From Escherichia phage HX01: a DNA stretch of 64,000 nucleotides. Under the pieces are notes generated by a model, which did not search any database, was not told where the DNA came from, and saw only the letters and a program-made list of their open reading frames with translations. A program made the translations under genes and the position numbers. The stretch lies in sequence record NC_018855.1, one strand, 5' to 3'. Positions 2,755 through 43,901 of the stretch are shown one piece after another (the stretch's first letter is position 1; the number at the start of each line of letters is the position of its first letter).

Positions 2755-2802
2755 TGGACTTCTCCGTCATCACGGGAAGCTGGGGATTTCTCCCCAACCA
2801 GA

Positions 2803-3294
2803 TTATTCCCACCAATCAAGAGCAAGAGTTACTTCGAACGTTTCAATCTCGTTATTCGAATCCCAATCAAGAGATACTTCACCAACGTTAGTAGGCCACA
2901 AGCCGACAATTTCAACTTCTTTAGTGACCGTTTTAGCATCACGAGCAAATTGACGAACGATAGCAGTCTTTTTATATTCAGCAGGTTTACCACCGGTAAT
3001 TTCATTACCTTGTCCTGCTGCAATACCTTGCCAATCAACAAATTTCTGACGAATGCTATGAGCATCATCGTTCATTACTGTAATAGTCCAATCATCGAAT
3101 GTACGATCACCGGCCACGTTAATTTTACGGTTCATATAAGAAACAGGAACCTTTTCAACGATCGCAGCAGGAAGAGCCGTAGCACGACACTGGAAGCTAA
3201 AGTTTTGCCCAAGATAAGAGATTTCTACTTCGAACAGGTTAGGGCGAGCGAAATCACCTGATTCGAAGGCACGAGTTACGTCATCTACAAACAT
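2803..3294 (-). CDS. 19: Tail tube protein gp19
   Basis: 163 aa, same length as T4 gp19; synteny. Confidence 0.9.
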   Translation of the reverse strand: MFVDDVTRAFESGDFARPNLFEVEISYLGQNFSFQCRATALPAAIVEKVPVSYMNRKINVAGDRTFDDWTITVMNDDAHSIRQKFVDWQGIAAGQGNEITGGKPAEYKKTAIVRQFARDAKTVTKEVEIVGLWPTNVGEVSLDWDSNNEIETFEVTLALDWWE

Positions 3295-5416: not shown

Positions 5417-7742
<2,326 letters not shown>

Positions 7743-31994: not shown

Positions 31995-32069
31995 GGCCCT
32001 GTAGCTCAATGGGAGAGCTGTCAGCTCATAACTGATAGGTAGCTGGATCGAAACCAGCCAGGGTCACCA
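31995..32069 (+). tRNA. tRNA with CAU anticodon (Met or Ile2-type)
   Basis: Hand-folded cloverleaf: acceptor GGCCCTG/CAGGGTC, U8A9, D-arm GCTC/GAGC, anticodon loop CTCATAA, T-arm GCTGG/CCAGC, encoded CCA. Confidence 0.8.
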
Positions 32070-32072
32070 ATC

Positions 32073-32149
<77 letters not shown>

Positions 32150-32167: not shown

Positions 32168-32512
32168 ATGAAAGGCAATATTTATCTGGTAGTTCATGAC
32201 TTAACGTTTTATTTTAACGAACGTGAAACAGTTATTTCCGATAGGTTAATTAATTCGCTGTATCAGCATGCTGATTATGTCTATTTTCAAAATGAATTCG
32301 GACATTGGAAGTTTCTTAAAAACCGTTCCGGGTTAACTAGTTTTGAATACTTTGACCGTAAAGACCTTTTAAACGAAATTCCATTACAACATCGGTTCCA
32401 GAAACGCGAATCACTATACTATTGTCGTCATATACCAAATGCTGAATGTGTTGATGAAGTAATTAATCTATGGCGTAGACGTAGAGAACAAATTGATGAT
32501 ATGTCAAAATAA
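32168..32512 (+). CDS. Hypothetical protein
   Basis: 114 aa from ATG 32168 with GAGGAAAA RBS just after tRNA-Arg. Confidence 0.5.
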   Translation: MKGNIYLVVHDLTFYFNERETVISDRLINSLYQHADYVYFQNEFGHWKFLKNRSGLTSFEYFDRKDLLNEIPLQHRFQKRESLYYCRHIPNAECVDEVINLWRRRREQIDDMSK

Positions 32513-32610
32513 GAAGCCGGGTCGCTACCGGCAAGTCGTCGGACTGATGTTCCCTGAGTAAGGACTGGTCTTAATAAATCTTTATGATTTGTTAATATCC
32601 CCTTACATCA

Positions 32611-32772
32611 CAGCAGAAACGGCGCAAAGAATTATCGATTCGAGGAAATATCTTTGCCGTAAGCCGAGTAGCGTTTTTGACGGAACGTTCGGATATGGTC
32701 GAGATATGGCCTTTTAAAAATATTGAGTAGCGTCAACTGCTTAATAACCGGGTTCGAATCCCGGCGTTTCGT
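32611..32772 (+). ncRNA. Candidate tRNA-like stable RNA (T4 rnaC/rnaD analogue)
   Basis: Non-coding stretch with canonical T-arm CCGGG-TTCGAAT-CCCGG and possible acceptor pairing GAAACG/CGTTTC; no ORF; ends before a terminator. Confidence 0.3.
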
Positions 32773-32814
32773 ACAAACACTTGCCTTAGTAGGTGGAAAC
32801 CCCGACAAGGTATA

Positions 32815-40795: not shown

Positions 40796-41284
40796 ATGAA
40801 TATATTTGAAATGCTTCGTAATGACGAAGGTCTTAGACTGACTTTATACAAAGACACTGAAGGCTTTTGGACGATTGGCATAGGCCATTTAGTAACAAAG
40901 AACCCATCTTTAGCCGTAGCTAAAGCTGAACTTGACAGAATGATCGGCCGTAAATGCAACGGTACAATTACCCTTGATGAGGCTGAAAAGCTATTTAATG
41001 AAGACGTTGATAAAGCCGTTCGCGGAATCTTGGGTAATGCTAAACTTAAACCGGTATACGATTCTTTAGATGCGGTTCGTCGTTGTGCATTGGTCAATAT
41101 GGTCTTCCAAATGGGTGTAGCAGGCGTCGCCGGTTTTACTAATTCTCTTCGTATGCTTCAACAGAAACGTTGGGACGAAGCGGCAGTAAATCTAGCCCAA
41201 TCTAAATGGTATCGTCAGACACCCAATCGCGCGAAACGCGTAATATCAACATTTAAAACAGGAACTTGGAAAGCGTATATATGA
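40796..41284 (+). CDS. e: Endolysin (T4 lysozyme) gpe
   Basis: [32 protein letters not shown]... very close to T4 lysozyme by recall. Confidence 0.92.
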
Positions 41285-41549
41285 AAACATATAGTGAATT
41301 TTTATCAGAATCTATTCTTAACGAAGCTACTGACACATTTGCAACTAAGTTAGGTGCAGCTTTGGTTGAAGCCGAAAGTCTATTAGCACGTATTTTAAGA
41401 TAGATACTCGCAAATTTGAACGTACCAGTGATATCGTTAAGCTTGAAGCCTTGTTGCGTATGTGTGATAAACCGGAAGAAATCGCTAAGAACGGCTCGCT
41501 GATGAAACAACGTCTTGAAAAATATATTTCAGGCGCTTCAGAAAAATAG
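41281..41549 (+). pseudogene. Internal-protein-like gene interrupted by a frameshift
   Basis: [10 protein letters not shown] capsid-targeting-like start, in-frame TAG at 41401 after 40 codons, coding continues in the -1 frame for 48 codons to 41549. Confidence 0.45.
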
Positions 41550-42021: not shown

Positions 42022-42052
42022 GGAAAAAGGTTGCGATGGTAAAGCTTAAACA

Positions 42053-42082
42053 GTTTACGCTTAAGTATTAATATGGTATAAT
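42053..42082 (+). promoter_or_regulatory. T4-type early promoter
   Basis: GTTTAC, 18-nt spacer, TATAAT. Confidence 0.55.
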
Positions 42083-42112: not shown

Positions 42113-42415
42113 ATGAAAACATATCAAGAATTTATTACTGAAGCGCGAGTGAGTGCAGGTAAATTAGAAGCCGCTATAAATAAAAAGGCCCATTCATTTC
42201 ACGATTTGTCCGATAAAGACCGTAAGAAACTTGTAAGCCTTTATATTGACAAAGAGCGTATTCTCGCTCTTCCTGGCGCTAATGAAGGTAAACAGGCCAA
42301 GCCTTTGAATGCTGTTGAAAAGAAAATTGATAACTTTGCTTCTAAATTCGGTATGTCTATGGATGACCTTCAGCAAGCGGCTATCGAAGCAGCTAAAGTA
42401 ATTAAAGGTAAATAA
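42113..42415 (+). CDS. ipII: Internal protein II-like (capsid-targeted)
   Basis: 100 aa starting MKTYQEFITEA (canonical capsid-targeting sequence). Confidence 0.65.
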   Translation: MKTYQEFITEARVSAGKLEAAINKKAHSFHDLSDKDRKKLVSLYIDKERILALPGANEGKQAKPLNAVEKKIDNFASKFGMSMDDLQQAAIEAAKVIKGK

Positions 42416-42417
42416 CA

Positions 42418-42470
42418 GTTTACTTTCTCCTAGAATTGTGATAGTATAATCATAATTACTTGGAGAGGTA
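42418..42470 (+). promoter_or_regulatory. Early promoter/stem-loop duplicate driving a denV remnant
   Basis: GTTTAC ... TATAAT ... TTGGAGAGG, homologous to the denV promoter. Confidence 0.5.
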
Positions 42471-42472
42471 AA

Positions 42473-42525
42473 ATGACTCGATGAAAAAATTTTAATGAAG
42501 CCACACTGGTATAAGTATTAAGGCA
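42473..42525 (+). pseudogene. denV remnant (5' start fused to degraded 3' end)
   Basis: ATGACTCG (as denV start) then TGA after 3 codons; following GATGAAAAAATT...CACTGGTATAAGTAT matches denV 3' end DNA. Confidence 0.4.
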
Positions 42526-42687
42526 AAAATATTTACATTCAAATAACATGGGAACAAGCTGGACCTCATGATTCTATGAGGGATTCCCGCCAACCTGTAA
42601 TAAGGTCGAGTCCAAGTGCGGTAATGGGTAAATACAGAAATGGACAATTCATGTGCCATGGAATGGCCCAAACTTAGAGAGAACAAA

Positions 42688-43227
42688 ATGAAAACATTTT
42701 TAACTGGACCTTATCTATCCCTGATGAATGCTTTTACACACCATTCTGATGCTAGAGTAGAAGAAATTTGTAAGAACGGTTATGTCCCACCATTTGAAGA
42801 CATACTCAAGCAGTACTGTACACTTCGTTTAGACGGTGGCAGACAATCAGGTAAATCCACTGCAGTAACTAATTTTGCTGCTAATTGGCTGCACGACGAT
42901 GGAACAGTTATTGTTCTTTCTAATACTTCAGCTTATGCTAAAATTTCTGCTGGCAACATTAAAAAAGAATTTTCTCGTTATTCTAGCGACGATATTCGAT
43001 TCCGTTTATTTACTGATTCTGTCCGTAGTTTTATTGGCAATGAAGGTTCTAAATTCCGTGGATTAACGCTTTCTCGTATTCTGTATATAATTGACGAGCC
43101 TATTAAAGCTCCTGATATGGATAAGATTTACAACATACATATTAAAACAGTCCAACACTGTTGCAAAAGCAAATATTGCATCAGTGGTATTGCTCGTCCT
43201 CAATTTTTTGTGATTGGAATGCAATGA
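42688..43227 (+). CDS. P-loop NTPase, function unknown
   Basis: 179 aa; Walker A GGRQSGKST and Walker B-like LYIIDE. Confidence 0.6.
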   Translation: MKTFLTGPYLSLMNAFTHHSDARVEEICKNGYVPPFEDILKQYCTLRLDGGRQSGKSTAVTNFAANWLHDDGTVIVLSNTSAYAKISAGNIKKEFSRYSSDDIRFRLFTDSVRSFIGNEGSKFRGLTLSRILYIIDEPIKAPDMDKIYNIHIKTVQHCCKSKYCISGIARPQFFVIGMQ

Positions 43228-43532
43228 TGACCACTATTGAAGTTTTTGAGTATTGTTATAACAGCCCAGTATGCAATAAAAGGGCTCTTGTAGAAAATTA
43301 TGAGATTTACCATTTTAAACCTAAACGATACCGTTTGACTAAAGGTCCGTTCGCAGGGCAGCAGGTTCTTTGTACTGCTCCTAATGCACGGTTGATGACT
43401 AGTATTCCGCATTTCAAAATGGAATTTATTGATGGGCCATTTAAAGGATTAATCACTCAAAGTTTAATGGCGTTTAATTCCGACCCATTTTTGATTAAAG
43501 AAAAAACTTGGATAAATTTATTTTCTAATTGA
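43224..43532 (+). CDS. Hypothetical protein
   Basis: 102 aa, ATGATGA overlap with upstream stop. Confidence 0.5.
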   Translation: MMTTIEVFEYCYNSPVCNKRALVENYEIYHFKPKRYRLTKGPFAGQQVLCTAPNARLMTSIPHFKMEFIDGPFKGLITQSLMAFNSDPFLIKEKTWINLFSN

Positions 43533-43538
43533 GGTTAT

Positions 43539-43901
43539 ATGAAAGCATATCAAATTCTTGAAGGTGTACATAAAGGCACTATTTATTTTGAAGACGGTAC
43601 TCAAGCCCGGATTATCGTCTCTAAGACTTTTAAAGAAGACGCTATTGTAGACCCGGAAATTTTCTACGGTTTGAATGCCCGTGAAATTGAAATTGAACAT
43701 CAACCTAAAGTTAAAATTGAAGGTGGTCAACACCTGAACGTTAACGTTCTGCGTCGTGAAACTCTGGAAGATGCAGTTAAGCATCCGGAAAAATATCCGC
43801 AGCTGACCATCCGTGTATCCGGTTATGCAGTTCGCTTTAACTCTCTGACTCCGGAACAGCAGCGCGACGTTATCGCTCGGACATTTACCGAGAGTCTATA
43901 A
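43539..43901 (+). CDS. Autonomous glycyl-radical cofactor GrcA/YfiD-like
   Basis: C-terminal half ...[49 protein letters not shown] matches E. coli GrcA by recall incl. RVSGY glycine-radical motif; enterobacterial-like codons. Confidence 0.85.

Follow-up and report, generated by a model that had tools for sequence, protein, structure and literature searches.

The early gene vs.8 of a T4-type Escherichia phage encodes a predicted single-domain ASCE NTPase and lies directly downstream of a conserved structured RNA

The 64,000-nucleotide stretch of Escherichia phage HX01 DNA analyzed here (NC_018855.1; the whole stretch is referred to below as the window) comes from a Tequatrovirus and carries an open reading frame (ORF) at 42688-43227 that, judged from its sequence, corresponds as orthologue to vs.8 of bacteriophage T4; in T4, vs.8 is one of the accessory genes of the early region e-denV-ip-vs-regB-tk. 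The product, a basic protein of about 20 kDa, is predicted from sequence and model to be a minimal single-domain nucleoside triphosphatase (NTPase) of the additional strand, catalytic glutamate (ASCE) division with an intact set of catalytic residues. The gene vs.8 was already known; what is new here is its ASCE classification outside the curated families. An earlier note, made from the DNA letters without database searches, had called the product a stand-alone small P-loop NTPase, possibly a kinase or a toxin-like ATPase, encoded next to an ipII-like gene; the P-loop NTPase has stood, backed by motif invariance, predicted fold and profile matches, while the suggested classes have not and the known T4 ORF had gone unrecognized.

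The protein is 88% identical to residues 41-219 of T4 Vs.8 and matches PHROG 1488 ('unknown function') from end to end (E = 4.2e-78, 177/177 profile positions). The ORF opens with an ATG and closes with a TGA at 43225-43227, and its principal features are as follows.

42688..43227, plus strand: vs.8 coding sequence, 179 aa plus stop, predicted single-domain ASCE P-loop NTPase.
42835..42861, plus strand: Walker A (P-loop) G50-G-R-Q-S-G-K-S-T58, within which the run D49-K56 is invariant in an alignment of 20 homologues.
43024..43062, plus strand: Arg113 and Arg124-Gly125, between Walker A and Walker B and invariant in the 20 homologues; candidate trans-acting arginine finger(s).
43081..43098, plus strand: Walker B L132-Y-I-I-D136-E137, the catalytic Glu right after the Asp, on model beta-strand 131-137.
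43201..43224, plus strand: C-terminal strand FFVIGMQ, with G177 and Q179 invariant.

The two motifs of the earlier note, GGRQSGKST (Walker A) and LYIIDE (Walker B), are read directly from the sequence, and they are not chance matches, being invariant or nearly so in 20 homologues down to 37% identity and lying in an AlphaFold2 model with a P-loop alpha/beta domain. Invariant across these homologues are D49-G-G-R-Q-S-G-K56, R113, R124-G125, L132, I134, E137, P138, G177 and Q179, with I135 and D136 at least 90% conserved, and when 25 members down to 19% identity are considered R52 is the sole invariant residue besides Met1. The model (predicted local distance difference test score, pLDDT, 83; predicted TM-score, pTM, 0.84) is a single domain of five strands alternating with helices, in which Walker A comes after strand 45-48, the strand being succeeded by helix 53-69. 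A catalytic Glu after Walker B marks ASCE ATPases and not kinases; Vs.8 has this Glu, a Walker A on a strand-loop-helix and a RecA-like alpha/beta core. The chain would appear to end at the position of helicase/terminase motif III, the coupling motif.

Vs.8 falls in no curated family, because no threshold was reached in Pfam, NCBIfam, PADLOC or a search of PDB sequence profiles. In Pfam there were sub-threshold matches only, to Terminase_6N (the best; 18.6 bits with a cut-off of 22), AAA_14 and AAA_30, and across the 25 members these are the weak matches that recur (AAA_14 in 16/25, Terminase_6N in 10/25 and AAA_30 in 4/25), again with none reaching threshold. Every recurring weak Pfam match is to a P-loop family. 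NCBIfam gave no match, PHROG 1488 carries no function, and the PDB profile search returned nothing below E = 0.12, so that the statement that the protein has no other recognizable domain holds. The only match in PADLOC, to PtuA, spans 72 residues at the P-loop with 14.7 bits (E = 0.003) and is insignificant, which leaves the toxin-like ATPase class unsubstantiated. That Vs.8 is a small-molecule or nucleotide P-loop kinase is now very improbable and largely refuted: no kinase family recurs in Pfam across the 25 members or appears in NCBIfam, kinases are absent from the top 50 PDB structures retrieved by Foldseek, the Walker B Asp is followed by Glu, and the 179-residue single-domain model lacks a lid or acceptor-binding insertion. 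To be set against this are the small size of the protein, its Walker A, the occurrence of kinases in phage accessory regions, and a weak match to CobU in 1/25 members (E = 0.038).

The solved structures nearest to the model in the PDB were the first domains of helicases (SLFN11, DSH9, poxvirus VETF-s, RecD, RecD2, UvsW and flavivirus NS3), the packaging ATPases P74-26 TerL and phi29 gp16, and also RecA and KaiC (Foldseek, E = 1e-4 to 5e-2, TMq 0.35-0.49). The leading ones among these, SLFN11, DSH9, VETF-s, P74-26 TerL, RecD, UvsW and phi29 gp16, gave E = 1e-4 to 4e-2 and TMq 0.39-0.49, and the Foldseek probability for helicase, terminase and RecA domains was 0.9-1.0. The best matches were to the first RecA-like domain of superfamily 1 and 2 (SF1/SF2) helicases (RecD/AAA_30, SLFN11, DSH9, VETF-s and UvsW; E = 1e-4 to 3e-2), with which Vs.8 shares strand order and the end of its chain at the motif III position, although TMq stays below 0.5, sequence identity is 10-17% and Vs.8 has one domain. 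Helicases need a second RecA-like domain, from which both the arginine finger and the cleft for nucleic acid come. Membership of SF1/SF2 was rejected, the two tandem RecA-like domains with motifs I-VI not being present in this single-domain protein. Closer in size are small phage P-loop proteins of 145-175 aa in BFVD (from Proteus phage phiP4-3, Aeromonas phage Aes012, Acinetobacter phage 133 and Pseudomonas phage 201phi2-1; TM 0.5-0.69, E = 1e-4 to 7e-7), some of which share the syntenic position of Vs.8 in T4-type genomes; these are uncharacterized, and the comparison gives breadth and no mechanism.

Likeness to the large terminase gp17 is confined to the P-loop. The gp17 of this phage (611 aa, 5420-7255, minus strand) contains both Terminase_6N and Terminase_6C, and several T4-like phages of Escherichia have a gp17 with 100% identity to it. 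Both proteins have Arg-Gln in Walker A (SRQLGKTT in gp17, GRQSGKST in Vs.8) followed by a similar strand 2, and both have an hhhhDE Walker B with the catalytic Glu, preceded by Arg-Gly a dozen residues earlier. Over Walker A and strand 2 the Smith-Waterman score of Vs.8 with gp17 was 39, as compared with 20.5 +/- 4.0 for shuffles (reached by 5/2,000), and hhalign aligned 42 columns at Walker A with a probability of only 15%. The Walker B region, FRGLTLSRILYIIDE, had looked terminase-like by eye beside the gp17 segment, but shuffle-controlled alignment went against this and the comparison was withdrawn. As similarity in the Walker B half does not reach significance, 'terminase-like' describes the P-loop only and not family membership. 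Unlike gp17 and Terminase_6N (PF03237) proteins, Vs.8 is without ATPase subdomain II, a nuclease domain or a portal/small-terminase context, and it is expressed from the early region. Vs.8 as a large terminase was thus rejected: 0/25 members reach 22 bits, and core-wide similarity and the C-terminal RNase H-like nuclease are missing.

A tblastn search detected Vs.8 in 1,008 phage records, with at least 80% coverage in 1,006. With the 2,111 records containing a T4-type TerL as the denominator, Vs.8 was almost universal in T4-type phages of Escherichia (549/602 records) and Shigella (79/83), common in those of Klebsiella (162/276), and undetected in the cyanophage branch in the same search of phage records. 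The name vs.8 is used in the records of RB51 and JS10 with most others labeled 'hypothetical', and stray propagated labels on homologues include 'endoribonuclease' and 'terminase large subunit'. An exhaustive profile search of 1.84 billion representative proteins yielded just 57 relatives, all small (93-259 aa). The window order nudE-e-denV-ipII-vs.8-vs.7-vs.6 agrees with T-even genomes, and e-denV-Ip-vs.8-vs.7-vs.6-...-regB is kept in RB51, T4 and CC31. Relatives at 24-26% identity, in genomes of about 165 kb, occupy the same genomic place, their neighbors being an endolysin gene, an overlapping small ORF after the Vs.8-like gene, a glycyl-radical protein gene, denV, regB, vs and tk. It follows that the block Vs.8-Vs.7-Vs.6 is old. 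Its two downstream genes in the window are these.

43224..43532, plus strand: vs.7 homologue, 102 aa (PHROG 2049, E = 1e-48), its ATG overlapping the vs.8 stop.
43539-43901, plus strand: vs.6 homologue, an autonomous glycyl-radical cofactor (GrcA/YfiD-like; Pfam Gly_radical, E = 1.9e-18).

The stop of vs.8 and the start of vs.7 overlap as ATGA at 43224-43227, an arrangement that is the same in RB51, T4, CC31 and a 24%-identical relative. Retention of this overlap in distant relatives suggests coupled translation and possibly a complex of the two proteins. Vs.7 contains two GPFxG motifs (KGPFAGQ and DGPFKGL); it had no match in the copy of Pfam searched, which lacks PF26834, and its homologues carry PF26834. 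Only three homologues of Vs.7 were found. The adjoining glycyl-radical gene accompanies Vs.8-like genes even at 24-26% identity (loci L075 and L077).

We consider it rather probable that Vs.8 is an early accessory ASCE NTPase that hydrolyses ATP in dependence on its own oligomerization or on Vs.7, and that it acts on nucleic acid. The residues expected to carry out NTP hydrolysis are all conserved (the P-loop Arg-Gln-x-Gly-Lys-Ser/Thr, the Walker B Asp and the catalytic Glu next to it), together with two more invariant arginines and the C-terminal Gly-x-Gln. RecA and the packaging ATPases are single-domain and oligomeric with an arginine supplied in trans, while in helicases and AAA+ proteins a second domain or lid completes the active site. 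A lone RecA-like domain cannot close its own active site, and therefore an oligomer or a complex with Vs.7 is likely. Most likely a homo-oligomer of Vs.8 would hydrolyse ATP with an arginine in trans, as in packaging ATPases and RecA, R113 and R124-G125 being candidates for this arginine; alternatively, Vs.8 may be active in a complex with Vs.7. Since the nearest structural relatives are all nucleic-acid motors and the family is basic (isoelectric point 8.5-9.7 in 22/25 members), DNA or RNA is the most economical guess for the substrate, which Vs.8 would bind or remodel in early infection.

Several observations weigh against this reading. TMq to solved structures stays below 0.5 and the ASCE clades are many, so that no specific substrate follows, and Vs.8 reaches no curated family threshold. 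The Walker B half of the protein is not similar to gp17 (score 17, shuffle mean 23). The AlphaFold model of Vs.7 is unusable (pLDDT 51), such that the proposed partnership is carried by gene overlap and synteny only, and the searchable literature holds no biochemical or genetic datum on Vs.8 and reports no function for it. In one sub-branch (P0056, P0059, P0063 and P0064) G-H-[ST] replaces G-K-[ST] and there is no acidic Walker B, the loss of these Walker residues implying that some members act without hydrolysis. Proteins of this sub-branch, which end in Glu and not Gln, are, from their sequences, probably catalytically dead and would act by binding alone. The same sub-branch, and the truncation of Vs.8 to a single domain stopping at motif III, could be taken to mean that Vs.8 goes back to a duplicated terminase or helicase domain that has degenerated, lost catalysis and been kept in a structural or adaptor role. 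We find this scarcely plausible, as the main branch, including the protein of the window, keeps every catalytic residue over more than 60% sequence divergence, which would be unexpected without selection on catalysis.

The genomic setting allows a further reading, in which Vs.8 would serve counter-defence or host takeover and not be a housekeeping nucleic-acid enzyme; it might, for example, mimic the P-loop domain of the terminase or, as an ATPase, disable an immune sensor of the host. The region is rich in anti-defence genes, with internal protein genes just upstream of vs.8 and with Vs.4, which we take to be the anti-CBASS sponge Acb2, in the cluster. The resemblance of the Vs.8 P-loop segment to gp17, and the accessory nature of vs.8 (1,008 records as against 2,111 with a T4-type TerL), would also fit. 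In a study of 2026, the only paper that literature searches on vs.8, vs.7 and vs.6 brought up, each of the proteins Vs.3 to Vs.8 was cloned separately behind the vs.8 promoter, and Vs.3 was identified as the type IV Thoeris inhibitor TadIV-1 (PMC13243611). The cluster thus contains an anti-defence gene, yet this screen, the sole one found, picked Vs.3 and not Vs.8 (PMC13243611). In addition, the PADLOC match is insignificant, Vs.8 has no known target, and a passive decoy needs neither an invariant catalytic Glu nor invariant arginines. On these grounds a counter-defence role is possible but unlikely.

The start codon at 42688 is the one conserved among homologues, as the earlier note had it. 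The T4 reference (NC_000866) annotates vs.8 as 219 aa, but residues 1-40 of this form (MRDSRQPVIRSSPSAVMGKYRNGQFMCHGMAQT...) come from translating the conserved DNA/RNA element upstream of the real start.

Locus L024 (NC_000866) 2794-2913, minus strand: N-terminal extension of T4 vs.8, equivalent to window 42576-42677.

In the window the matching 33-codon ORF at 42576-42677 ends at a TAG and lies in a frame different from that of vs.8, and in other phages the same upstream ORF is fused, truncated or without a start codon. The homologue alignment always begins M-K/R-T-F-L-T, and neither the 219-aa form of T4 nor the form from an alternative in-frame ATG at 42640 (195 aa) is conserved. Gene callers often choose an upstream in-frame ATG, giving versions of 194-199 aa. 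Because all homologues align from M-K/R-T-F-L-T, the conserved protein is the 179-aa form, corresponding to a start at T4 Met41, and by this comparison of sequences the 40-residue T4 extension is a longest-ORF artefact.

The element that was translated in the T4 annotation is a conserved structured RNA lying directly 5' of vs.8. The neighbor called ipII-like in the earlier note is indeed IpII, but the two genes are not directly adjacent, being separated by a 272-nt spacer containing the structured RNA. The features upstream of vs.8 are as follows.

42054..42082, plus strand: T4 early-type promoter TTTACG-N17-TATAAT with TG upstream (consensus scan, 10/12 matches).
42113..42415, plus strand: ipII (internal virion protein), the upstream neighbor, 94% identical to T4 IpII (PHROG 7857, E = 4.5e-55).
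42540..42672, plus strand: conserved structured RNA (covariance model, covariation).
42550-42554 with 42584-42588, plus strand: RNA stem P1.
42564-42581, plus strand: RNA hairpin P1a.
42590-42627, plus strand: RNA hairpin P2, with the invariant core 42593-42624 inside.
42655-42667, plus strand: RNA 3' hairpin.

The promoter at 42054..42082 is the nearest canonical one upstream, and ipII, the RNA element and vs.8 are probably transcribed from it. In a blastn search with the 272-nt ipII-vs.8 spacer about 80 nt (42590-42669) proved 76-82% identical in T4-type phages of Klebsiella, Kosakonia and Yersinia, the Vs.8 proteins of which are only 36-45% identical, and a 40-nt core was more than 90% identical even in rV5-like phages. 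The core ACCUGUAAnAAGGUCGAG(N5-11)GGUAA occurs once in the window. At least 47 unique copies share an architecture made up of a closing stem P1, frequently with P1a inside it, and, 1-2 nt further on, hairpin P2, whose outer stem is variable and whose large apical region is invariant.

Support for the structure comes from covariation. In an unbiased MAFFT alignment with 18 sequences from T4-type phages the share of cells that pair is 94%, as compared with 25-46% in slid registers, there are four two-sided compensatory pairs (reached by 3/500 shuffles), and the covariation score is 0.148 versus 0.064 +/- 0.011. A covariance model built from this alignment had a single match in the window (42540-42640, 61 bits, E ~6e-13) and recovered all other lineages. 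In the alignment derived from the model, which is fitted to it and hence favorable to it, 90% of cells pair (31-44% when slid), 14/21 pairs are compensatory and 6/6 P1 pairs covary. The structure is strand-specific owing to conserved G.U pairs and belongs to the vs.8-sense strand. Thermodynamic stability gave a null result, none of 15 lineage representatives beating shuffles (z = -0.8 to +1.2), and the case for structure is accordingly a matter of covariation and the invariant core. Rfam 15 gave no cmscan match with E of 1 or less in the window or at 10 loci of other lineages, only neighboring tRNAs scoring, and the sequence of the element is absent from the searchable literature.

Other identities for the element were considered. 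As coding DNA it was rejected, since the T4 extension is out of frame and stopped here, rV5-like copies have no start, and all three codon positions are invariant. A tRNA, rnaC/rnaD, a PeSL cassette and an Rfam family were each ruled out by comparison, and an HDV-like (hepatitis delta virus) or hammerhead-like fold was considered by eye and found unsupported. PeSLs, the promoter-terminator cassettes of hyperplastic regions in T4-type phages, consist of a short stem-loop and an early promoter (PMC4122927), and like the element they are conserved non-coding DNA between variable early genes; the window also has a PeSL-type early promoter at 42054-42082. The element differs in being about 125 nt long with an invariant 40-nt core and covarying stems, in having no promoter hexamers and in occurring also in non-T4-type phages. 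Like T4 rnaC and rnaD it is a phage non-coding RNA linked to tRNA clusters, but it has no sequence similarity to them and in T4-type phages lies outside the tRNA cluster. Homologues of rnaD (86% identical) and rnaC (99% identical) are present at 32509-32773 (plus strand), about 360 nt downstream of tRNA-Met and tRNA-Arg (31995-32149), which are the only two tRNA genes of this phage compared with eight in T4.

Phage records with the core number 1,054, among them those of Vibrio phages, Campylobacter phages and a 45-kb coliphage, and the core is present also in IMG/VR contigs of 43-177 kb and in 37 metagenome contigs. The 32-nt core had no match in 185,579 bacterial and archaeal genomes, and a 17-nt sub-pattern gave 21 matches in the same genomes, attributable to chance (~70 expected) and without the rest of the motif. 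Among T4-type loci with enough flank (31 + 15) the Vs.8 gene follows the element in all, by 15-130 nt or by ~460 nt with an inserted ip-like gene, and the gene upstream varies (denV, ipII, Ip4 and others). In the other lineages no Vs.8 homologue was found, the element lies in stretches poor in coding sequences, and 13/17 metagenome loci with enough flank have same-strand tRNA genes within ~1.2 kb.

This association could mean that Vs.8 works with the upstream RNA, as an RNA-dependent NTPase or ribonucleoprotein (RNP) chaperone, or that the RNA is a cis-regulator of vs.8. The element precedes the Vs.8 gene in 46/46 T4-type loci irrespective of the variable upstream gene, its structure belongs to the vs.8-sense strand, and on one contig that encodes a Vs.8 homologue of very distant kinship the element lies ~700 nt away. 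In rV5-like phages, Vibrio phages and phages of 43-47 kb, however, the element occurs and no Vs.8 gene was detected, more distant T4-type phages have Vs.8 without the element, and the adjacency may be mere conserved synteny; a functional pairing is doubtful. Because each occurs without the other across lineages, the element is an autonomous RNA module. A related proposal, for which we would likewise claim little likelihood, is that the element represents a new widespread class of phage RNA, retained within tRNA operons by other lineages and captured as the vs.8 leader in T4-type phages, which Vs.8 might bind or remodel or by which it might be controlled in an RNP module. As part of that improbable proposal the core and covarying stems may be likened to a ribozyme or to a ligand- or protein-binding RNA.

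Variations on the element were seen in individual lineages. One 177-kb T4-type contig (L035, 5083-5313, minus strand) has a tandem double copy scoring 114 and 54 bits. In rV5-like loci (L003, L021 and related ones) a second repeated motif, UAGAGGGCUUGAWAGUGC, stands ~50 nt upstream of the element, and in L021, L045 and L050 it stands also just downstream; in rV5-like phages this motif is followed by a near-consensus sigma-70 promoter, TTGACA-N17-TATGAT. In phages of ~46 kb (L030, L032, L036, L042, L080, L088, L101 and L112) an extra 8-bp long-range stem, GUUGUGAC...GUCACAAC, encloses P1-P2 and the P1 loop CAAGCGGAUGAAA is conserved, and here the element may form a single domain within a larger RNA, with a tRNA cluster ~260 nt downstream of it.

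The part of the spacer before the element (42416-42540, plus strand) opens with a near-copy of the early-promoter sequence at 42052-42082 (ACAGTTTAC...TATAAT), with a spacing of 20 nt and not 17, followed by three mini-ORFs (MTR*, MKKF* and MKPHWYKY*). In other phages the two halves of the ipII-vs.8 spacer are split by an ip gene, and 42416-42540 resembles a scar that recombination has left in the PeSL-mediated shuffling of ip genes. Between e and denV, at 41266-41403 (plus strand), a short ORF has an N-terminal motif resembling the capsid-targeting motif of internal proteins and may be what is left of a truncated ipIII-type gene, at the place occupied in T4 by ipIII and ipII.

Vs.8 is one of many conserved early genes of T4, the best-studied phage, to which no function has been assigned. 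The present analysis moves it from 'hypothetical protein' to a candidate ATPase with definable mutants and assays and with Vs.7 as a likely partner. The artefactual 40-residue N-terminus copied from T4 to other annotations would compromise expression constructs. The RNA element, being strand-specific, covarying, common to unrelated lineages, linked to tRNA operons and uncatalogued, may matter more than Vs.8 itself.

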